DNA from: a virus
Taxonomy: Duplodnaviria; Caudoviricetes
Length of the DNA: 54,917 bases
Virus record (IMG/VR): IMGVR_UViG_3300006752_000033
Location: 1-54,917 of that record
Reading direction: 5' to 3' (one strand)
Positions 5,086 to 49,147 of this stretch are shown piece by piece. The translations under genes and the position numbers were made by a program. The notes under the pieces are model-generated. The model was not told where the DNA came from and did no database searches. It saw only the letters and a list, made by a program, of their open reading frames with translations. How positions within the stretch are numbered: the first letter of the stretch is position 1; each line of letters opens with the position of its first letter.

Positions 5086-5093
5086 TATTTATA
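5086..5093 (-). promoter_or_regulatory. T4-type late promoter TATAAATA (gp18)
   Basis: Exact consensus about 50 nt upstream of the gp18 ATG. Confidence 0.8.
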
Positions 5094-6717
5094 ATAAATC
5101 TGTTTTCTCATTTGACCACATCCAATAGTCGCCATCAATTACTTCTGCCTCTACTCCATGCCCTGTTTCTACAAACCCGAACGGAGTCAAGTCTCTTTCG
5201 ATGTACCTTATCTGTGAGTCATACAACCCTTCGCGAATATCCACATCAGTCAAGTCTTTAAAAAATTGTTGTGTAGACAACCAAGCAAACAAGACCATAC
5301 ACATGGCCAGATCATCATGATATCCTTCATCAGCGGAAAAAGAACCAGCCTTTTCCACAAAGGTTGACAACTCATTGATACAGTCGGCATCCCAAACTAA
5401 AAACTTAGTTTCTTCTACCAAACTTTTTAGTGCCAAACACCCCTGTCTTTTGACAGCCTTTGATGTTCTAACACCCAGAGTAGTTTGTTTTCCAAAACCA
5501 GGCGATACATATTGTTTGTTTTTTTCTTGCACTGTACTAAAGATATTCTCGTACTCTAGTTCTTGGTGCAGTATGTCAACTACCTGTTGACCAATATCAT
5601 TATTTTCTATTAATACATACGCATTGTTAAAATCTTTTGCCACTCTTGCAATAAAGTCTGGATACAAGAGCGGCGAAACCTTGTTGTCTCTAAACTTTCC
5701 GACAACCTTGAAAGGCATCTCTGTAATATCAATGATAACAAAAGCAGAATAATCTCCACCGATTCCTCTCGCTGTGTCAGTTGTTATTACATAGTATTTA
5801 TTTTCTTGAGGTTCTTCATAAATGTCTAACCCATCTTTCTTGTAAAGAATTTCTTTTGATGACATTACTGCCAGTGCTTTTCCACTAATAAGAGTGTTTG
5901 TTGATCCCAAGAATTCACATAAAACTTCCTGATTATACTTTACTTCACCGAGAAGTTTAAATTGTTCTTCTGCCCACTTCTCATCACGGCCAGGAATCTC
6001 CGTGTAGTGGATGAACATATTCTCAAACCCATTAGTACCCTTCTCCGATTCATTCCAGAATTTCCAGAAGTGGTTGTATCCCAATGGTGTTGATGTCAAA
6101 AGAATCTTTGTTGTCTCACCAGCAGAAATGGTTGGATATACAGAAGCAAAGAACTCATCCGCAATGTTGTTTGGGATGATCGCAGCCTCATCAATGTACA
6201 ACCAGTTTACCGACTTACCACGAATACCAGATGTTGTGGTTGCAGATGTGAAAACTCTTGATCCATTTTCTAAATCAACGTCACCCTTGTTCCAAGTCTT
6301 TACACCCTGTTGCATCCAAATAGGCAGGTTCTCATACATGATTTGATAACGAGACAACACCTCTCTGGCAGCTGCGGTCTTGTTCGCCATGATCGCAACG
6401 TTCTTATTATCTTGAAAAATAGTATAGTGCAGAATACATGCGGCCGAGGTGATTGTTTTTCCTTGTTGTCTGCCCTCCATCAAGATTGTTTTACGATTGT
6501 TCATAATAAAATCTACTTTCACTTTCTGACAATCATATAGTTTAAATGGTTGCAAACCTTTATCAAGAGTTACAATCTTACAATAATTTTCAATGAAGTA
6601 AATGGGGTCTTCAGAACACCGGACAAATTCTTCCAGTTGTTCTTTGGTGAAATCGTGTTGGTATCCAACTGCTTTTAGATTTGGATTGCCGTGGTATGAG
6701 GTTTCAATCTGGTTCAT
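5089..6717 (-). CDS. gp17: Terminase large subunit gp17
   Basis: Walker A RQQGKT, Walker B YIDEAA, STPLGYNHF, nuclease DTARG...DYSA and HDDLAM motifs. Confidence 0.98.
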   Translation of the reverse strand: MNQIETSYHGNPNLKAVGYQHDFTKEQLEEFVRCSEDPIYFIENYCKIVTLDKGLQPFKLYDCQKVKVDFIMNNRKTILMEGRQQGKTITSAACILHYTIFQDNKNVAIMANKTAAAREVLSRYQIMYENLPIWMQQGVKTWNKGDVDLENGSRVFTSATTTSGIRGKSVNWLYIDEAAIIPNNIADEFFASVYPTISAGETTKILLTSTPLGYNHFWKFWNESEKGTNGFENMFIHYTEIPGRDEKWAEEQFKLLGEVKYNQEVLCEFLGSTNTLISGKALAVMSSKEILYKKDGLDIYEEPQENKYYVITTDTARGIGGDYSAFVIIDITEMPFKVVGKFRDNKVSPLLYPDFIARVAKDFNNAYVLIENNDIGQQVVDILHQELEYENIFSTVQEKNKQYVSPGFGKQTTLGVRTSKAVKRQGCLALKSLVEETKFLVWDADCINELSTFVEKAGSFSADEGYHDDLAMCMVLFAWLSTQQFFKDLTDVDIREGLYDSQIRYIERDLTPFGFVETGHGVEAEVIDGDYWMWSNEKTDLL

Positions 6718-14077: not shown

Positions 14078-15625
14078 TTAGTAAGTACCACCATCGATGG
14101 TAGCATTAGCAATAGTTTTTGAAGTACCACCAGCCAAGAAAGTACCGACTCTTGTATCTGTGTAGTACAGGTTAGTTGATCCTTCACTGAGATCATCCGT
14201 GTCAAAGTTAGAAATACTAGAAACAGTACCAGTTACGTTACCTGTTACATTACCTTCAAGGTTTGCAACAAGAGTACCCACTGTGTATCCAGTTCCACCC
14301 GTATTGACGGTAGTGGTCGGAGCTGATTGTAGGTCTTTAAACAACTTCCACTTACCACTGTCAGATGCATCACGGAATAGACCAGAGTACAGGTCTAGCG
14401 AACCAGATGTGTCATACAGACCATAGAAACCAAGGTCAACAGAGTCAGAAGCACCGTTACCAGAACCAATTGAGAACAATGGGTCGGTCACTTCCAAGTT
14501 TGTTGTGGCAACAGTAGTTGTTGTTCCGTTTACAGTAAGGTTACCAGCGATTGTTACATCATCTGGCAGACCGATAGTGATCTGGTTATTAGAAACCGCA
14601 GTTTCGATCTCATTTGTTGTACCAGCGAATGTAAGTGTTTCACCACCAGCAACCGTGTCAGTACTTCCACTGTCAGCGGCAACATCAAAAGAAGTTGCAA
14701 TAGACTGTGTTGAAACAGCAGTTACAAGACCCTTAGCGTTGACTGTAATAACGGGAACAGCCGTTGTAGAACCGAAAGAACCTACGTTACTGTTTACTGT
14801 TGCGAGAGTAGAGGTTCCACTTACTGCTGCTGAACCATCAAAGGCAGCAGAAGTCCATGAGACATCTCCTGTCATACCAACTGTGCGAGCAGTTGCGAGA
14901 GCAGTAGCAGTATCAGCATTACCTGTTACGTCACCAGTAATATCACCAGTAACGTCACCTGTTACGTTGCCCGTAAGTGGACCAGTAATACCCGCAAAGG
15001 TGACACTAGCGTTCGTAGCAACGTCCTGACCAATACTAATCGCATCAGCGGCAACTGTAACACCAGTACCAGCACCAACATTCAGAGTGACATCACCAGA
15101 TGTTCCACCACCAGTTAGACCGGAACCAGCGACAACAGACTCAATGTCACCGGCATCGTTTGTAAATGAAATTACACCAGTAGTAGAGTTGTATGAAATA
15201 TCACCACTAGCAGATATAGCAGCTCTTGCTCTAGCAGTAGTGTGGTAAAGGTTGGTTGAACCTTCAGAGATGTCATCTGTATCGTGGTTACTAACATCAC
15301 TAACTGTACCAGTGACATTACCAGTTACGTTGCCTGTGAGTGCAGCAGTAATTGTACCAGCAGAGAAGTTACCAGAACCATCTCTCTTTACAATTTTAGA
15401 TGCGGTGTTAGCATTAGTGGCGCCATCTACCTCATCGGTGTAGTACTTACCACCGATGGTGTGAATAACTGCGTTAGAACCACTATCAACCGACTCCATA
15501 TATAATTTTGCAGAAGCACCATCATTAGAGGTATCTTGTGCATAAGCCATTTCACCGTTGAGCAAGTCGCTGGTAGCTGGAGCGGCGCTGCCCGTTGACC
15601 TTTTAATCTGAATTGTTGTTGACAT
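14078..15625 (-). CDS. Thr/Gly/Ser-rich fibre-like virion protein
   Basis: TIQIKRSTG N-terminus, GNVTG/GDVTG repeats, two copies of DTDD(I/L)SEGSTNLY, C-terminal IDGGTY. Confidence 0.8.
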   Translation of the reverse strand: MSTTIQIKRSTGSAAPATSDLLNGEMAYAQDTSNDGASAKLYMESVDSGSNAVIHTIGGKYYTDEVDGATNANTASKIVKRDGSGNFSAGTITAALTGNVTGNVTGTVSDVSNHDTDDISEGSTNLYHTTARARAAISASGDISYNSTTGVISFTNDAGDIESVVAGSGLTGGGTSGDVTLNVGAGTGVTVAADAISIGQDVATNASVTFAGITGPLTGNVTGDVTGDITGDVTGNADTATALATARTVGMTGDVSWTSAAFDGSAAVSGTSTLATVNSNVGSFGSTTAVPVITVNAKGLVTAVSTQSIATSFDVAADSGSTDTVAGGETLTFAGTTNEIETAVSNNQITIGLPDDVTIAGNLTVNGTTTTVATTNLEVTDPLFSIGSGNGASDSVDLGFYGLYDTSGSLDLYSGLFRDASDSGKWKLFKDLQSAPTTTVNTGGTGYTVGTLVANLEGNVTGNVTGTVSSISNFDTDDLSEGSTNLYYTDTRVGTFLAGGTSKTIANATIDGGTY

Positions 15626-15663
15626 TTAACTTTCTCCCTAGAGTTTTTATGTTTTTATTTTTT

Positions 15664-15927
15664 TTAAAATGTTCCACCATCTATAGAATTGACACTTACA
15701 TTAGCTGAAGACAGGGGAGCGGATTCCCAATTGCCCGAGTCTGAGTCATATACTAACGTATCGCCGTCTGCCAAGTTTTGTAAGTCTACCCCCTGTAGAC
15801 CATCGATACTTGTAGAGGTCTGTGTCTTTGATGTGTTGGTTACTGCTGTTTTTAATCTAGCAGTAGTACTTGGAGACTGCGTTACTATTCTAGTCCCAGA
15901 CGAACCCAGTGTTACGTTGACAGCCAT
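15664..15927 (-). CDS. Small structural protein
   Basis: LADGDTLVYDSDSGNW fibre-type motif; ends IDGGTF. Confidence 0.7.
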   Translation of the reverse strand: MAVNVTLGSSGTRIVTQSPSTTARLKTAVTNTSKTQTSTSIDGLQGVDLQNLADGDTLVYDSDSGNWESAPLSSANVSVNSIDGGTF

Positions 15928-16253
15928 TACTTAGTCACCTCCGGTGTTACGGTTACTATACCCTCCAAGATTCTCAGAGTTTCGACCGAACTAGCAATCT
16001 CAATGTCATAGACATATCTTCCAGATTTTATATCACTGGTCTGAGCGGCAGTCAATGAAATTGTTATCTCTCCTGTGCCGTCTACTTTTGCTGTTGTAAA
16101 ATCTGTATAAGTATTAGTATAATAACTTTTTCGCAGTTGTGCGGACACGGTATAATCTGTCAAGACTTTTGCCGTCCCGTCATCGTTGGTCAGAGTTATT
16201 GTCAAGGAAAACGTTGTACCCTGATCTATTGTGATATTCTGTACAGTGGCCAT
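15927..16253 (-). CDS. Small virion structural protein (Ig/BppU-like beta sandwich)
   Basis: NITIDQGTTF, ISLTAAQT, GRYVYDIEI, RILEGIVTVTPEVT. Confidence 0.75.
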   Translation of the reverse strand: MATVQNITIDQGTTFSLTITLTNDDGTAKVLTDYTVSAQLRKSYYTNTYTDFTTAKVDGTGEITISLTAAQTSDIKSGRYVYDIEIASSVETLRILEGIVTVTPEVTK

Positions 16254-16275
16254 TTTCTATCCTTTTTGTTCTTAT

Positions 16276-16283
16276 TATTTATA
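16276..16283 (-). promoter_or_regulatory. T4-type late promoter TATAAATA overlapping a 7-bp inverted repeat
   Basis: Exact consensus; TTCTTAT-tattt-ATAAGAA at 16269-16287. Confidence 0.8.
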
Positions 16284-16297
16284 AGAAAGAGAATATT

Positions 16298-17032
16298 ATG
16301 AAAACAGTTGTGACGGTTCTTTATGGTGAAAAGTATAGTGCGGATGACGTACACTATATTTATGATAAAACCAAACAGTACAATCATATATGCATCGTAG
16401 ATGACGAGAACAGCAAACACCTTAACAAAAATATAAAACAAATCCGAATAGAAGAACCAGAGGGACACTGGGAGAAGATAAAAATATTCAAAAATAATTG
16501 GCAAGGGGATTGCCTTTACCTAGACTTAGATGTTATAATACAGGGTAGTCTAGACAAATTGTTCGACCACTGTTCAAAACCAACAATTTGTTATTGTTAC
16601 TGGAAGGCTCCGTGGGATACCAGTGAGAATAAAATCTACAACAAACCAAAAAAGTATCATTTTGACGATGGTTCTGATGATCTACCTTGGACATATAAGT
16701 GGTTGGGATTGTGGAATTCCAGCGTGATGGCATGGAACGGGAATGACGCGAGATATATCTACGACTACTTTGAAGATAACGATCAATATTTTATGACTAA
16801 ATACTGTGGAGACGATAGATTTTTATACCACGAAAAACTCTTCGACAACACATTTCCCAAGGGATTGATGTACTCGTTTCAAGCCGGAGTAGATTACGAC
16901 ACAGACGTATCCCCAAGAGGATATAAAATAAAACCAGAATATCCAATCGTGATTATGAATGGTCTAACTGCAAAAGATGAGTTGAGAAAAAAATATTATG
17001 ATGCACTTTCTCTGCATGAAATGGGGAAATAA
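16298..17032 (+). CDS. GT-A fold glycosyltransferase-like protein (paralog 1)
   Basis: YGEKYS, W.KIKIF, LYLDLDVII (DxD), WNSSVM.W, GDDRFL. Confidence 0.75.
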   Translation: MKTVVTVLYGEKYSADDVHYIYDKTKQYNHICIVDDENSKHLNKNIKQIRIEEPEGHWEKIKIFKNNWQGDCLYLDLDVIIQGSLDKLFDHCSKPTICYCYWKAPWDTSENKIYNKPKKYHFDDGSDDLPWTYKWLGLWNSSVMAWNGNDARYIYDYFEDNDQYFMTKYCGDDRFLYHEKLFDNTFPKGLMYSFQAGVDYDTDVSPRGYKIKPEYPIVIMNGLTAKDELRKKYYDALSLHEMGK

Positions 17033-19505
17033 GTACTCGGCAGAATATGTAAACAATTTACGCAACATGGTTCAACAGAACTATACCAAGCGGCACAAGT
17101 TTATATGTTACACCGATGATCCAGATGGTATTGACAAAGGCATAACCATTCGATCAATACCCAGAGTTGACCCACTGCATCCCGACTACTGGTTCGGCAA
17201 AGAGAACTACTGTTGGGACAGATCAAAATTTCTAGTACTAAATTCTCACCATTGGTTGCGTACCAAGGGCCCGTTCTGTTATATTGATTTAGATGTTGTC
17301 ATTCAAAACAACATCGATGACATATTTGAACTCTCTGCAACACCACACATGTTGTATTCAAACTGGGAAAATCCCTCAGTGTTGCATGATAGACGTTTCA
17401 AAGACATAAGAGGCACTCTGCATAACTCCAGCGTAATGTTGTGGTGTAACGATGCAGGGGAAAAAATTTACAATGATGTCCTAAAACACAAGGACACGAT
17501 ATTCAAAACCTTCTGGAAGGGAACCGACAATTACTATCCTTGGAGAGAACACCAAGTGGTAGGGGATGGGTACTGGTCTTTCCTTCCCTCGGAGTGGGCG
17601 TATTCTTATAATCGCGGCCAACAATACCCAGATGATGTTACTCCGCATCTATACAGGGAAGAACCAAAGTTTTGTATCTTTGAAGCACCAGTTGTACCCA
17701 AGAGAACAAAGTTTTTTAAACCGCATGATGTGAAGGACTATAACCTTCTGATACACTGGCACGGCAAGACAGAGTTTGAAAGACTTTGGTTGCCCAAATT
17801 TCCTAGTACATTTTTTACCAAAAACAAACACACCGATAAAATATCAGAACTTTTGAAGAACAAAGACTACGATACATTGCAGTCAAAGTTTGAGAAAGAC
17901 CTGCCCCAATTGAAAGATGATTGGGAAAAGTATTCGAGTAAGTTTGAAACTCTGCGTGAGTGGTTGGGATTTGATTCCGTATCAGATGACTCACTAGAAA
18001 AAAACTACATGAATCAAGATGTGGTATCGTCAATCAAAAGTCTGGTTGACCAAAATGATTTACAATCTTTGTCTGAGAAACTAATCAAAGACTTTCCAGA
18101 ACTAAAAGAATACTTTGCCAAACCCGTGGAAGAAGTCAAAAAACTTGTTCCAGAACTAGAACGTGAAGTCTCAGACATGAAGTTTATCAGGATGATCGAA
18201 CCTCACCACAAAGGAGTCATCAAGGATTTATTTGAATCTGGTGACATGATATCAATGCACTTGAAATTTTGTGCAGACTTCCCAGAAGACAGACTACTCC
18301 AAGAAGGTGACCAATCTCTATATTGGAATAAAGATGCAGATGATATCTATGATTTTTACAAACAAAGATATATCAACAAGATGCAACGAGTAGTATATAA
18401 AGAGGCAAAAGATTGTGGGCCAGTGAGATACTTTTGGAACGTCAGCAATCTACAATGTTTTGCTCTTTACAAAAGACTTTGGAAGAATAATACACTTCCT
18501 AAAATCAAACACGATGTTATGGAAAACATCAAACAACATGGGTTACAAAGAATATTTTGGGATTCATCGGAGTCGGACATACAGGCATTGTATAAAAAAT
18601 ATTATGTTAATACTCTAAAGGAACTATTCTATAAACAAGACTATGAAAAAGTATTTGAACGTCTGTATAATATCATGCCGAAACAAGAGTTGTTGTCGAT
18701 TCTAAATCAAGACAATGTATCGGACAACGACACTCTGATAAAATACTTTCAAATGCATGGGGAACAATTCAGTGACCTATATCACGGACTGTATGATGAC
18801 GGTGCTCCAGATGGAGCTCTGATTCAATTGAGTACAACGCAGAACGACACCGGAGATGAATTCAATGACCTATTTGTAAACGGCAAAGAACACAGTCCGG
18901 CATCGATCAAGAATATATTTGACAAATTCAAAGTCAACTGGGTCACGTTTATGTGCGAAACTTCTGACCCCACAAAGTCGCAACACCTAGAGGACATCTG
19001 TAAGTACTTCAAAGAAAAAAATGTTACCATCACCGTACAGACATATAACAAAAATTTTATCAAACCAATCTACATTGACAACTTACAATATGTGCCGCAG
19101 CCACAGAAAGCAGAATCAGAAAACGGGGTAACAGAGATAATAGCAAGTGACATCCCCGTGAACCTAGAGACTTTGAAAATGTTCAAGAAGTCAGATGAGA
19201 TAAGACCGATCAAAAGAAAAATGAAAGAGAGAGACCCCGTGTGGTGTGACTCAAGAAAGTCTGGCTACTTCTATGTCAACTCAGCTGGAAATGCGTTTCC
19301 CTGCGCCTTTATTTCTAGAGACGTAGAAGAAAATAAACTATTGCCGCACCATCCCCTTGACTATACCTACAATAGACGGTATAATGATCTAAGTAAGTTC
19401 TCTGTTGGTGAAGTAATATTCAATCACGACTTTGAAAATATAAGTCAACACCTAAAACGAAAACCGTTAAACATATGCACCAAAAGATGTGGGGGGTGTA
19501 AGTGA
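16998..19505 (+). CDS. Fusion protein: glycosyltransferase-like domain (paralog 2), helical repeats and a degenerate radical SAM/SPASM-like C-terminus
   Basis: N-terminal CMKWGNKY, CYTDD, YIDLDVVI, NSSVMLW; C-terminal C..RKSGYFYVNSAGNAFPC...CTKRCGGC; no CxxxCxxC near the expected radical SAM core. Confidence 0.7.
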   Translation: MMHFLCMKWGNKYSAEYVNNLRNMVQQNYTKRHKFICYTDDPDGIDKGITIRSIPRVDPLHPDYWFGKENYCWDRSKFLVLNSHHWLRTKGPFCYIDLDVVIQNNIDDIFELSATPHMLYSNWENPSVLHDRRFKDIRGTLHNSSVMLWCNDAGEKIYNDVLKHKDTIFKTFWKGTDNYYPWREHQVVGDGYWSFLPSEWAYSYNRGQQYPDDVTPHLYREEPKFCIFEAPVVPKRTKFFKPHDVKDYNLLIHWHGKTEFERLWLPKFPSTFFTKNKHTDKISELLKNKDYDTLQSKFEKDLPQLKDDWEKYSSKFETLREWLGFDSVSDDSLEKNYMNQDVVSSIKSLVDQNDLQSLSEKLIKDFPELKEYFAKPVEEVKKLVPELEREVSDMKFIRMIEPHHKGVIKDLFESGDMISMHLKFCADFPEDRLLQEGDQSLYWNKDADDIYDFYKQRYINKMQRVVYKEAKDCGPVRYFWNVSNLQCFALYKRLWKNNTLPKIKHDVMENIKQHGLQRIFWDSSESDIQALYKKYYVNTLKELFYKQDYEKVFERLYNIMPKQELLSILNQDNVSDNDTLIKYFQMHGEQFSDLYHGLYDDGAPDGALIQLSTTQNDTGDEFNDLFVNGKEHSPASIKNIFDKFKVNWVTFMCETSDPTKSQHLEDICKYFKEKNVTITVQTYNKNFIKPIYIDNLQYVPQPQKAESENGVTEIIASDIPVNLETLKMFKKSDEIRPIKRKMKERDPVWCDSRKSGYFYVNSAGNAFPCAFISRDVEENKLLPHHPLDYTYNRRYNDLSKFSVGEVIFNHDFENISQHLKRKPLNICTKRCGGCK

Positions 19506-20314
19506 GAGTAAATTATGTATGTTGTAAGTGGGGAACCAAATACGGTCCACACTTCGTCAACAGATTGAAAGAGATGGCAAAAAGAAATACTCCAGACAAG
19601 TTTGAGTTTCACTTTTATTGCTACACCGATAACTCTGAAGGATTTGATGATGATGTTAATGTTATCCCTTTTCCTGACATTCCTGATATTCATCCTAAGT
19701 ATTGGTTTGGCAGTGAAAATTTTAAGTATGGTATGGCCCGCTGTTGGGATCGTCCTAAAACTTTTGTTTTTAATACCCATAATTTTGCTCCTGATAAGCC
19801 TACTGGACGTTTTGTTTTTTTTGACTTGGATGTTATCATTCAACGCGATCTTACACCTGTTATAACATATAACATGGAAAGACCCACCAAGATGAAGTCT
19901 TGGTGGCAAGACCCCAGACCAATGGAGACTAGACAATTTAAGTTGGCTCATGGTGCATATACAAACGGATCGTGTCAAGTGTGGTCAGACGATCAGTGTG
20001 AGTGTATCTGGGAAGATGTGCTAAAAAATCAAAAGAAGATTTGGTTCACATACACTGACGGAACCGATAACTATCATTCATGGAAGTGGGGTAGATACGG
20101 TGAAGACTTGTGGGATCACTTTCCTTCTTGGATGGCATACTCATACAACCGTGGTCGGTCATGGGATGAAGACGATTTGAACGTTGGTATCTACAGACCA
20201 AACTGCATCATCTGCGTGTTCAACGTTGATCTGTTGCCCTTTGAGGATAAGAGTAGAGGTCACACGAAACAAGATGAACTTGCTGATCCTAAATTACTGG
20301 AGCATTGGCGATGA
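19502..20314 (+). CDS. GT-A fold glycosyltransferase-like protein (paralog 3)
   Basis: CCKWGTKYG, CYTDN, FFDLDVII, GTDNY; the GTG start overlaps the upstream TGA. Confidence 0.78.
   Translation: MRVNYVCCKWGTKYGPHFVNRLKEMAKRNTPDKFEFHFYCYTDNSEGFDDDVNVIPFPDIPDIHPKYWFGSENFKYGMARCWDRPKTFVFNTHNFAPDKPTGRFVFFDLDVIIQRDLTPVITYNMERPTKMKSWWQDPRPMETRQFKLAHGAYTNGSCQVWSDDQCECIWEDVLKNQKKIWFTYTDGTDNYHSWKWGRYGEDLWDHFPSWMAYSYNRGRSWDEDDLNVGIYRPNCIICVFNVDLLPFEDKSRGHTKQDELADPKLLEHWR
19647..19865 (+). CDS. Putative overprinted hydrophobic membrane peptide (about 70 aa) in the +1 frame of GT paralog 3
   Basis: AAGGA at 19638-19642 before ATG ATG ATG; almost wholly hydrophobic product; host-frame codons are mostly T-ending only across this interval. 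Confidence 0.5.
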   Translation: MMMLMLSLFLTFLIFILSIGLAVKILSMVWPAVGIVLKLLFLIPIILLLISLLDVLFFLTWMLSFNAILHLL

Positions 20315-20985
20315 ACATCTATACCGTAAAGTGGGGTGACAAATATAATCACCAACATGTCAACAGTATCTATGAACAGTGTTTGAAATATCTAACATGT
20401 GACTTTGATTTTTTCTGTCTAACAGAAGACCCCAAAGGATTGGACCCATCGATTAAGCCTTTGACTCTGCCGGGCGGCAACAAACTACAAAAGTGGTGGA
20501 ACAAGATGTACCTGTTCGACGACAGCATCGTGACCCAAAAAGGCGAGAAGATGTTTTTTGACATTGACACCATCATCCAAAAAAATGTTGATGTGATAGC
20601 TGAGTATGACCCAGAAGATTGTTTGTGTATGGTAAAGACTTGGTGGCACGATCTTGAAACACAATACAAAGACACTAGACACATTCCTCACAAGTTTACG
20701 GATTTAAACTCATCCGTGTTGCGTTGGAATGACAGTCTAAATACTAGAGAACTAACCGAATACTTCAACAAGTATAAAGAACAAATACTGTGGTATTATC
20801 GTGGTCTTGATAACTTCTTCTACAACAGAAGAGTAATCAAAACAAAACTGTTCCCCCTTGGATGGGTGTATAGTTTCAACCAAGGATTTGTTTTTCCCCA
20901 CGACATAGAAAAACATACCTACCGAGAACTACCATACATTTGTATATTTGACTCAATGGGAAAAAGTGAAGATGTTAAATTTTAA
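20311..20985 (+). CDS. GT-A fold glycosyltransferase-like protein (paralog 4)
   Basis: VKWGDKY, CLTED, WWNKMYLF, FFDIDTII, NSSVLRW, GLDNFF; ATGA overlap with the upstream gene. Confidence 0.78.
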   Translation: MNIYTVKWGDKYNHQHVNSIYEQCLKYLTCDFDFFCLTEDPKGLDPSIKPLTLPGGNKLQKWWNKMYLFDDSIVTQKGEKMFFDIDTIIQKNVDVIAEYDPEDCLCMVKTWWHDLETQYKDTRHIPHKFTDLNSSVLRWNDSLNTRELTEYFNKYKEQILWYYRGLDNFFYNRRVIKTKLFPLGWVYSFNQGFVFPHDIEKHTYRELPYICIFDSMGKSEDVKF

Positions 20986-21655
20986 TTTCTTAAATAATTT
21001 CAAACACTGGGGCGAGGCCCTAAGTATCATAGAACATAAGATGCCACACAAACTGGCAGACTTCAGACAGTCTTTGTCAGAGAACAACGTGGAATCAAGT
21101 GTTTGGTTGGTCGAGGAACTACAAAAGTATCTTGATGAATACTATGCAAAGCCTGGGAGTCTCAGAGTACTGATCCTAAATTCTTGGTTAGGAATGCCTA
21201 TGGTCCCGTTGATCTGTGAGAACCTAGACGTAGCACAGATTCACATGGTTGACTTGGATGAAGAGTCGATTGAGTTGTCAAAGATTTTTCACAAACACTA
21301 CGCTCAAGAAAAGTTTGTCAACATTCGACACTGGAATTTGGATATCCCATTTGAGTTTGAAAACCTCAACAAGATTGAAGTAGATGTTGTGATCTGTATT
21401 CACACAGAACAAATGTATCCCCTAGAAGAACTAGTTACAAAGAATCCCAATGCAGTATTCGCCATGCAAAACTCTAACGTGGTTGAAGAGATGTATGGTA
21501 TAAACTGTGTGGGTTCTATTGAAGAGTTAAAAGATCAGATCGGATTGCCTGATGCAGAATTTGAGGGCACCATCAAACAAACTTATCACTCTTGGGACGG
21601 AAAAAAAGAATACGATAGGTTTATGATTATCGGCCAGAAGGAAGGATTCTTTTGA
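20972..21655 (+). CDS. Class I SAM-methyltransferase-like protein (divergent motif I)
   Basis: VLILNSWLG (motif I-like), MVDLDEE (acidic motif II), DVVIC..TE, C-terminal RFMIIG. Confidence 0.55.
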   Translation: MLNFNFLNNFKHWGEALSIIEHKMPHKLADFRQSLSENNVESSVWLVEELQKYLDEYYAKPGSLRVLILNSWLGMPMVPLICENLDVAQIHMVDLDEESIELSKIFHKHYAQEKFVNIRHWNLDIPFEFENLNKIEVDVVICIHTEQMYPLEELVTKNPNAVFAMQNSNVVEEMYGINCVGSIEELKDQIGLPDAEFEGTIKQTYHSWDGKKEYDRFMIIGQKEGFF

Positions 21656-22385
21656 TTAAACTGTCTGCAATTGATTGGTGAGTATCAATTCCGTAGTGGA
21701 ATCCTTCTCTGCCAACGTCAACGGAATTTACTTCAAAGTCCTTGTTGAAATCAAATTGATAGACTTGATGCATATTAGAAATATTTTTTAATGCCATCTC
21801 ATGCAGCAATCTGCGAGATTTATTATATCCAATGTCATTGCAAGACAGAAAAAATTCCGACAGTCCACGCAGATCAAACACCTCTTCATATTTTTGTACA
21901 TGGGTTGAAATAAGAGGGAGAACCATATCATCCATATGCGGAAGAATTATATAATTTCTTGAATCGAATAACCACTCCCACAATATAAATCTGGGAGAGT
22001 ATGTGGATAGATACCATAATAGATTTGAAATGTTTATGTCATGCGGCACACCAGGCAAAGACATGTTGTAATAGTCCATACCCAAACCTTTTGCAATAAT
22101 TGATGGGTAGCACTTATCTTCTGGAACTCCAATACCAAAGGTCTGAGAACCACCTACAACTAAGAAGTGATTTGTTTTATCAAAAGTTTTTGGTGTTCTG
22201 TGTCCAGCAAAATTGAAGTCATATGATATTCGGTGACCATAGTGTTCATTGTAGCTAGAAAAATTTGGATTGTCGGATAACAAATATTCGGTGATGCTGT
22301 TAGATTCATAACCAACAACCCGTCCATCGTCAACGGTTTTAACTTTTGGCCAGAGTTGATCGCCTTCTTTGTGCATCAAACTCAT
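21627..22385 (-). CDS. SGNH/GDSL-like protein
   Basis: VVGGSQTFGIGV block I, YNMSLPG block II, terminal GFHYG..TH..IA. Confidence 0.6.
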   Translation of the reverse strand: MSLMHKEGDQLWPKVKTVDDGRVVGYESNSITEYLLSDNPNFSSYNEHYGHRISYDFNFAGHRTPKTFDKTNHFLVVGGSQTFGIGVPEDKCYPSIIAKGLGMDYYNMSLPGVPHDINISNLLWYLSTYSPRFILWEWLFDSRNYIILPHMDDMVLPLISTHVQKYEEVFDLRGLSEFFLSCNDIGYNKSRRLLHEMALKNISNMHQVYQFDFNKDFEVNSVDVGREGFHYGIDTHQSIADSLIKRILPSGR

Positions 22386-49139: not shown

Positions 49140-49147
49140 TATAAATA
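49140..49147 (+). promoter_or_regulatory. T4-type late promoter TATAAATA (gp2 operon)
   Basis: Exact consensus 5 nt before the gp2 ATG. Confidence 0.78.

Follow-up and report, generated by a model that had tools for sequence, protein, structure and literature searches.

Does an abrupt change in synonymous codon choice inside a phage glycosyltransferase (GT) gene betray a second gene written over the first? The question is raised by a 54,917-nucleotide stretch of viral DNA (IMG/VR record IMGVR_UViG_3300006752_000033, positions 1 to 54,917; hereafter the window), a 54.9-kb fragment of an uncultured marine T4-like myovirus estimated to be about 33% complete. Within it, a 219-nt patch of a GT gene consists largely of codons that end in T and coincides with an open reading frame (ORF) in the +1 frame, which an earlier reading of the sequence (the original prediction) took for an overprinted membrane protein. 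Overprinted genes are well documented in tiny viral genomes and rarely in large double-stranded DNA (dsDNA) phages, in which, to our knowledge, annotation pipelines never call nested ORFs. Keyword searches of the literature, which are not proof of absence, found nothing on a nested ORF in the glycosyltransferase of a T4-like phage, while overprinting in viruses is the subject of a review (PMC8227390). Here we find that the compositional anomaly is real, extreme, and actively maintained, and we consider a small membrane peptide overprinted on the GT gene to be its best single explanation, at a likelihood somewhat short of even.

Recounting the codons bore out the figures given in the original prediction. 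In the patch (19643-19861), 52 of the 73 codons end in T, versus 56 of 198 in the rest of the gene (19502-20314); all eight Pro codons are CCT, and the four Arg codons are CGC, CGT, CGT, and CGC. Only three of the 25 codons after the patch end in T, with Pro encoded by CCC, CCC, and CCA and Arg by AGA three times. Window-wide, the CCT share among Pro codons is 0.246, giving a probability of 1.3e-5 for eight of eight (0.246^8), and Arg is encoded by CGY at a share of 0.137 and by AGA at 0.602. Based on its amino acids and the codon usage of 42 window ORFs, the patch is expected to contain 29.4 T-ending codons, and its excess corresponds to a z score of 6.05, or of 7.4 when the patch is judged by the neighbouring genes only. 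A sliding-window scan for T at the third codon position (T3), proposed as a check alongside the prediction, revealed that the patch is the strongest of 14190 windows of 73 codons (runner-up, 4.01; empirical standard deviation of z, 1.28). In a complete relative of 165.6 kb (G001), which belongs to the same clade A as the window, the patch codons again rank first for T3, among 37029 windows (z 4.59), and among the 12 most T3-rich windows of that genome the patch is the only one with no +1 stop. No T3 signal is thus stronger than the patch, either in the window or in a complete related genome. Its third bases (T 52, C 9, G 7, A 5) indicate a bias that is specific to T, with A depleted, and that is not plain AT-richness. 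Second to it in the window is a T3 excess on the minus strand at 14897-15115, within the gene at 14078-15625 (48 of 73 codons; z 4.0), in a Gly/Thr/Val-rich repeat (GDVTGDITGDVTGN); as the +1 frame contains three stops there, no nested ORF is suggested at that site.

The AAGGA motif, triple ATG, TAA, and 72-residue peptide that had been described for the +1 frame are exactly as written (Table 1), and the spacing from AAGGA to the three ATGs is 4-10 nt. The peptide has a mean Kyte-Doolittle hydropathy of 2.23, and its sole polar or charged residues are K24, K38, D54, N66, and H70. When the 242 stop-to-stop frames of at least 60 codons in the window were ranked by hydrophobicity, the +1 frame came first (best 60-residue mean Kyte-Doolittle 2.46; next 1.74), and in G001 the candidate peptide frame exceeds every other non-repeat frame of at least 60 codons (next 2.01). 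The two most hydrophobic frames of G001 (L120) are Leu/Val repeats that lie in a low-complexity tandem repeat at approximately 152580-152960 and are unrelated to the candidate ORF.

In our proposal, the patch is the trace of an overprinted gene that is young in evolutionary terms and restricted in lineage. Translation would begin on the GT mRNA at an internal ATG cluster (19647-19655) suitably spaced from a GAGG or AAGG motif and would continue in the +1 frame to the TAA ending at 19865, and the product, an extremely hydrophobic peptide of about 72 residues, would insert into the host inner membrane. As the third positions of frame 0 double as the second positions of the +1 codons, selection for a membrane-compatible product would appear in the GT gene as a preference for T over C over G over A: T at this position would specify Phe, Leu, Ile, Met, or Val, C would specify Ser, Pro, Thr, or Ala, and A would specify a charged residue or a stop. 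We infer both the translation and the membrane insertion of the peptide from sequence.

Table 1. Positions, in the window, of the features of the glycosyltransferase locus.
Feature	Positions	Strand	Details
T3 patch	19643-19861	+	73 frame-0 codons, 52 T-ending; spans the conserved core VIPFPDIPDIHPKYWFG...GRFVFFDLDVIIQ, including the DxD motif
Shine-Dalgarno-like AAGGA	19638-19642	+	made by frame-0 codons GAA GGA (Glu-Gly)
Candidate overprinted +1-frame ORF	19647-19865	+	ATGs at 19647, 19650, and 19653; 72 aa; TAA at 19863-19865
GT gene	19502-20314	+	270 aa, frame 0, GT-A-fold glycosyltransferase-like; from the ORF listing
Sigma-70-like promoter match	19357-19385	+	TTGACT-17-TATAAT, 11/12; in the terminal part of the 835-aa gene, ~120 nt before the GT start
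Antisense shadow ORF	19445-19978	-	177 aa; codons are reverse complements of frame-0 codons; judged a by-product

The preference expected of such selection was compared with models of codon choice fitted to the window and to homologous loci (designated by L numbers). A free three-parameter model of the third base placed the bases in the window in the order T (2.7), C (1.5), G (0.3), A (0), which is the order predicted by hydropathy. A model with a single parameter, the hydropathy of the +1 residue, outperformed a T3-only model by 2.5-5.5 log-likelihood units in the window, L004, L007, L015, L031, and L014, which cover clades A-D of the family described below, and it was roughly equivalent to the free third-base model, being better in four of seven T3-rich sequences and worse by up to 4.5 units in three. 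In simulations with the T count held fixed, the hydropathy of the peptide exceeded expectation in the window (p = 0.0045), L004 (0.0007), L007 (0.009), L015 (0.003), L031 (<0.001), and L014 (0.03), with L094 at 0.14; hydropathy thus lies above the T-matched null in six of seven sequences, which are related, so that the p-values are not independent. By these comparisons, codon choice in the host frame accords with the needs of a second product.

A different force could leave much the same trace. Pyrimidine-rich third positions might be kept by something acting on the nucleic acid or on the translation of frame 0, such as a factor-bound U-rich tract in the mRNA, the local kinetics of translating the GT core, or a lasting mutation bias that is local and strand-specific, the +1 frame being an untranslated by-product. 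We regard this explanation as possible, although we lean against it. The free third-base model fits about as well as the hydropathy model, and adding hydropathy to it improves the fit by 0.4 units in the window, by 2.4 to 2.9 in L004, L007, and L014, and by 0 to 0.9 in L015, L031, and L094; with gains this small, "pyrimidine at position 3" explains the data about equally. Against this, no mechanism known to us predicts the order T>C>G>A with strong depletion of A over 220 nt. Neither an AT-rich unwinding element nor a U-tract would put A at a disadvantage to C, and C is preferred over A and G (likelihood-ratio test: window, p = 0.025; L015, p = 0.0005; L031, p = 0.001). Deamination is unable to turn CCA into CCT or AGA into CGY, and RNA structure is excluded, with nothing unusual detected in the patch (z +0.58). 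A T3 excess was sought and not found in the equally conserved second block of the protein (alignment columns 125-200) and in the paralogues, and the hydropathy of the peptide lies above T-matched expectation.

The distribution of the bias and of the ORF was examined in relatives of the GT gene, for which 80 IMG/VR loci at 77-97% amino-acid identity and 29 reached via a distant query were taken, of more than 200 loci, and a codon alignment of 73 distinct coding sequences was built. Patch T3 is 0.63-0.71 in clade A (the window, L004, L005, L012, L013, and L007; z versus own locus 5.8-7.4), 0.64 in clade B (L015/18; z 5.9-6.0), 0.58-0.64 in clade C (L030-37; z 3.3-4.4), and 0.60-0.63 in clade D (L014/19/25; z 2.8-3.3). 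It ranges from 0.47 to 0.68 in clade J (L060-73 and L087-106), with z up to 4.8 in part of the clade, from 0.38 to 0.56 in clades E-I (z mostly 0.5-2.3), and from 0.25 to 0.34 in the nine sequences of outgroup K, where z is negative (-1.3 to -3.3). The outgroup uses TTC, TAC, AAC, CAC, CCA, and AGA in the patch, and in L071 and L074-L082 the bias is reversed across columns 48-120, with C-ending codons for Phe, Tyr, Asn, His, and Asp. From the outgroup to the window clades, Pro codons switch from CCA or CCC to CCT at eight positions and Arg codons from AGA to CGY, indicating that the switches are not simple C-to-T changes.

In close homologues, those of clades A-D at 82-93% amino-acid identity, the T3 patch is retained together with an open, ATG-bearing +1 frame, as would be expected from the original prediction, rather than the scattered stops and missing patch that would have spoken against it. 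An intact ORF of 71-76 codons is present in 18 of the 19 unique sequences of these clades, the exception being L025, in which a stop at column 111 leaves 62 residues. Except in L007 and L025, the ATG lies at columns 49-51, with GAGG or AAGG about 5 nt before it, and the frame closes at column 121 or 125. This arrangement of GAGG or AAGG about 5 nt ahead of an ATG extends to clade E and, in clades A-E, often comes directly after a +1 TAG. The alignment, proposed as a check on the conservation of an open +1 frame, thus shows such a frame in clades A-D and scattered stops in more distant homologues.

Could the patch instead be a neutral leftover, brought in from a T-rich donor or by drift and now decaying, with an ORF that is accidental? 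The gene family is clearly mosaic, and patch and flank divergence are discordant. Across the GT family (window 19502-20314 and homologues L004-L112), recombination is fine-scaled: within single pairs, third-position identity of 100% over about 30 codons is found beside stretches of 40%, and the discordance between patch and flank is seen in L038 versus L041, L029 versus L038, and L019 versus L025. Synonymous sites outside the patch are saturated between clades (NG86 synonymous divergence, dS, not computable), and dS between clades in the patch is 0.7-1.05, at the level that we estimate to represent saturation for such a composition. We compared, in pairs of clades, the patch codons that encode the same amino acid and are able to end in T. 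This revealed that, in the eight of ten T3-rich clade pairs for which Fisher's test was non-significant, the probability of T opposite a non-T codon (0.67-0.79) is close to that of T opposite a T-ending codon (0.72-0.85). The T state is thus near independent between clades, yet each keeps 58-71% T3, meaning that T-richness is actively kept by each clade as an equilibrium rather than inherited, and it is held in this way in five diverged clades. A per-clade equilibrium disposes of a single import from a T-rich donor in spite of the recombination mosaic. In addition, no other part of the 165.6-kb relative is as T3-rich, no donor with such codon usage is in sight, and A at third positions is depleted, not raised. 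An import from a T3-rich donor had been named at the outset as what would speak against an overprinted gene; the independent T state and the lack of a stronger T3 region in G001 argue that none occurred, and we consider a neutral leftover very unlikely and largely refuted.

Returning to the overprinted peptide, a series of findings weighs against it, several of which are what an untranslated by-product would lead one to expect. With the codon usage of the window, a run of 71 codons would be free of stops with a probability of 0.031, which rises to 0.33 when the T3 count is matched; openness follows T bias, and the open frame is thus a by-product of that bias and not independent evidence. The Shine-Dalgarno-like motif and the ATGs are forced by a conserved frame-0 Glu-Gly-x-Asp-Asp, and the Shine-Dalgarno-like part is also present in the outgroup; being set by conserved residues of the GT, these signals are permissive rather than diagnostic. 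The peptide lacks a clean helix-loop-helix layout, its hydrophobic runs being 23, 13, 15, and 11 residues long, and the single charges that split these runs are imposed by frame 0. It has no relative among 5.8 billion clustered proteins, its sole match among 1.84 billion representative proteins is a 19-fold tandem-repeat artefact, and the ESM Atlas returned only scores of 0.85 to unnamed clusters. Searches of Pfam and PHROG with the peptide likewise found no family.

The state of the frame in other clades adds to these points. Most sequences of clades E and G, together with clade H and L025, have an ORF that is cut to about 59-67 residues or ends at columns 107-117; the +1 stop falls at column 111 across much of clade E (62 residues) and at column 109 in L051/52 of clade H. 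In L027/28, L040/44, L075, and L078 the ORF is interrupted by stops, and the +1 frame is polar in outgroup K. In clade J, in which patch T3 reaches 0.68, GTA at column 54 creates a +1 TAA in 14 of 20 sequences, and in the J sequences checked (L073) no ATG comes after this stop; a TTG follows it immediately, with AGGAG lying 10 nt before the TTG. That a T3-rich clade has this conserved stop and lacks the ATG is the strongest single point against a translated ORF, unless clade J starts at TTG. The choice of AAG over AAA for Lys, as a sign of +1 Ser versus Asn, at first seemed diagnostic and was rejected, as it represents one ancestral change common to clades that lack the patch: AAG is found at column 66 in nearly all non-outgroup clades, including patchless ones, and the Lys codons at columns 75 and 99 are mixed.

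Synonymous constraint was assessed in 28 close pairs that are independent in the phylogeny, by the ratio of observed to expected synonymous differences within the patch. In T3-rich pairs (n = 13) the ratio is 0.72, with 11 of 13 pairs below the rest of the gene and the lowest values (0.36-0.57) at columns 50-80, and in intermediate pairs (n = 12) it is 0.98. In the T3-poor outgroup pairs (n = 3), however, it is 0.59. The reduced synonymous variability that the original prediction led us to look for is seen in the T3-rich pairs and also in the outgroup; the constraint is modest, it is not confined to clades that bear the ORF, and recombination confounds the measure. Together with the opposite bias of outgroup K (z down to -3.3), the lowered ratio in the outgroup is in line with a by-product, and codon choice in the conserved core seems to be under some constraint even where the +1 frame is not hydrophobic. 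Pairwise NG86 dS in the patch versus the rest of the gene (0.24-0.32 versus 0.71-0.83), at first suggestive of strong constraint, was dropped as a clean measure of constraint on account of the recombination mosaic and of ratios that run from 0 to more than 2 in both T3-rich and T3-poor clades.

Population variants were taken from DNA contigs of four marine runs; the 40 differences listed, out of 123, do not suffice for a polymorphism test. Two metatranscriptome runs contained a 0.05 share of the words sampled. Among the differences listed, variants are not depleted in the patch (5 in 219 nt versus 5 in 594 nt), a further point against an overprinted gene. The listed patch variants change the +1 residues from V to A, L to F, F to V, N to S, and A to V, such that in five of five the residue stays uncharged and at least weakly hydrophobic. 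The contigs also show a GT-to-TG swap at 19814-19815 that turns a frame-0 Val into Cys, as in L004/L005, at the start of a run of eight T (GTT TTT TTT, 19814-19822, plus strand) within the patch. Slippage at this run was considered and would append just 14 residues of the +1 frame. Taken together, the T3 signature of a hydrophobic +1 product that had been claimed for the patch is borne out by the order T>C>G>A and by a hydropathy beyond that given by the T count, and the findings on openness, on the Shine-Dalgarno-like motif and ATG, and on constraint weaken the case for a gene.

The patch also lies opposite a long antisense ORF (Table 1), whose product could be the functional one. Its length, however, is accounted for by the sense strand, as T at sense third positions becomes A at antisense first positions, which excludes antisense stops. 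Moreover, the frame is also open (142 residues) in outgroup loci that lack the T3 patch, a consequence of the few frame-0 Leu and Ser codons of the TTA, CTA, or TCA kind. The antisense residues do not explain codon choice (log-likelihood differences of 0.1-2.4, with L060 at 4.8 and the window at 0.7, under the hydropathy model), the start is TTG, and no Shine-Dalgarno motif was noticed upstream. We therefore give the antisense product almost no credence. The probability that remains beyond an overprinted peptide, an untranslated by-product, a neutral leftover, and an antisense product belongs to causes that we did not consider.

If the +1 peptide is made, what might it do? A role as a holin or lysis peptide, or as a membrane anchor for the GT enzymes, had been put forward in the original prediction, and neither found support. 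A holin would be a small protein with at least one transmembrane helix and a charged, usually basic, tail at the C-terminus, and would be expected to adjoin an endolysin or spanin gene or to match a known holin family. The peptide has hydrophobic runs, but its C-terminus, NAILHLL, has no basic tail and its sole charges are K24, K38, and D54. No lysis genes were found beside the GT gene among the neighbours examined, the whole window not having been searched for an endolysin. A generic small inner-membrane peptide is all that the sequence would support, and a generic small membrane effector made from the GT-operon transcript would be a guess.

Known overprinted genes offer partial parallels. 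In phiX174 (Microviridae), the lysis gene E is nested in the +1 frame of the scaffold gene D, and in lambda, Rz1 is nested in the +1 frame of Rz, the two forming a spanin pair. Like E in D, the candidate would be a short, hydrophobic, membrane-targeted product of an alternative sense frame within a longer gene, with an internal start of its own. E, however, is experimentally proven, has one N-terminal transmembrane helix followed by a basic tail, and belongs to a 5-kb genome under strong size pressure, whereas the candidate lies in a T4-like genome of about 165 kb, its predicted product is hydrophobic throughout, and its ORF is found only in some clades. The comparison with E in D that accompanied the original prediction is thus apt as to mechanism only. 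Rz1 in Rz, like the candidate, is an embedded +1-frame gene of a large dsDNA phage with a membrane-bound product, which in the case of the candidate is predicted. Rz1 is a lipoprotein with a signal peptide and a lipobox that acts together with the product of its host gene; the 72-residue peptide, in contrast, has no visible lipobox or signal-peptide layout. In the hepadnaviruses, as described in one account (PMC10033635), the envelope (S) ORF is overprinted on the polymerase ORF, and its transmembrane protein is thought to have arisen de novo by substitutions; the nackednaviruses, which lack the S ORF, parallel outgroup clade K. Unlike the candidate, S comes from an animal virus, its product is proven and essential, and its ORF is ancient and conserved (PMC10033635), whereas the candidate ORF is graded and patchy among close relatives.

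A bolder form of the overprinted-peptide reading is one that we put forward tentatively: a transmembrane peptide gene may be in the course of being born by overprinting in the GT gene of a marine T4-like phage of about 165 kb, with its relatives representing graded stages. The stages would run from a polar frame with the opposite bias, in the outgroup, through weak T bias with broken frames, to full T bias with a Shine-Dalgarno-like motif, ATG, and a frame of 71-76 residues. If true, the relatives would form a natural time series in which a gene arises de novo, in a virus with no obvious genome-size pressure. A real peptide would be a clear case in which selection on a second frame has reshaped synonymous sites in the conserved core of an enzyme, the living relatives that lack it would offer a tractable system for the origin of a membrane protein de novo, and a scan for local T3 excess would be a cheap means of finding hidden small membrane proteins in phage metagenomes. 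If the frame is untranslated, a strong, clade-specific, and maintained synonymous-site bias still lacks a known explanation. Outgroup loci were also examined for a small hydrophobic gene, standing alone in the vicinity of the GT cluster, that could take the place of the peptide, and none was evident.

The gene that carries the patch was labelled a glycosyltransferase in the original prediction, and structural modelling agrees at the level of fold. It begins with GTG, overlapping the stop of the upstream 835-residue gene. A Pfam search of its protein found no family above cut-off, and its 32 database homologues are all unnamed or "hypothetical", while three adjoining paralogues match phrog_1962, annotated as "glycosyltransferase". 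An AlphaFold model built on 23 sequences (predicted template modelling score, pTM, 0.81; mean predicted local distance difference test score, pLDDT, 74.6) was matched by Foldseek to GT6/GT8-type enzymes with an E-value of 3e-7 and a probability of 1.00. Retaining GT-A enzymes (alpha-1,3-galactosyltransferase, LgtC, and the UGGT catalytic domain) were matched with E-values of 3e-7 to 1e-5 and template modelling (TM) scores of 0.41-0.58, at a sequence identity of only about 8-14%. D108 and D110 of the D-x-D motif are invariant in the 23 aligned sequences. Based on the model, the gene is a glycosyltransferase at the level of fold, with enzyme activity predicted. A tblastn search of 50,697 phage records with the GT gave no match at 1e-5, and there is thus no cultured relative to supply context.

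Elsewhere in the window, Pfam domains of a T4-type large terminase, tail sheath, gp5, gp6, and gp8 were identified, and the terminase shares only about 50% identity with its counterparts in Synechococcus myophages. Neighbouring the GT gene are its GT paralogues, a methyltransferase-like gene, and one gene that weakly matches DUF6473. A 92-residue hydrophobic ORF at 16226-16504 on the minus strand lies across the start of the first GT gene (16298). Its best 19-residue Kyte-Doolittle mean is 2.4; in hydrophobicity it ranks second among the frames of the window, and it could represent either a genuine small membrane gene or one more shadow frame. The sigma-70-like site upstream of the GT gene (Table 1) is the top such match in 15600-21800 and a consensus match only, and promoter-like sites in the region, at 19 versus 19.2 in shuffles, are not in excess. 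It might be a promoter for a transcript carrying both frames, and we note it as a lead only.

A T4-type late-promoter motif occurs nine times in the window versus 2.4 expected, and none of 100 shuffles reached nine. No copy was found on the plus strand upstream of the GT cluster, suggesting that this plus-strand cluster may not be a late operon. The copies lie at 5086, 10339, 16276, 26089, 33825, 35822, 42323, and 48681 on the minus strand and at 49140 on the plus strand, and several of those on the minus strand are positioned just upstream of the starts of minus-strand ORFs. In the outgroup loci L074-L081, the methyltransferase-like gene is followed, at approximately 5150-5785 of each locus, by an extra proline-rich gene of 205-211 codons that the cluster in the window lacks.

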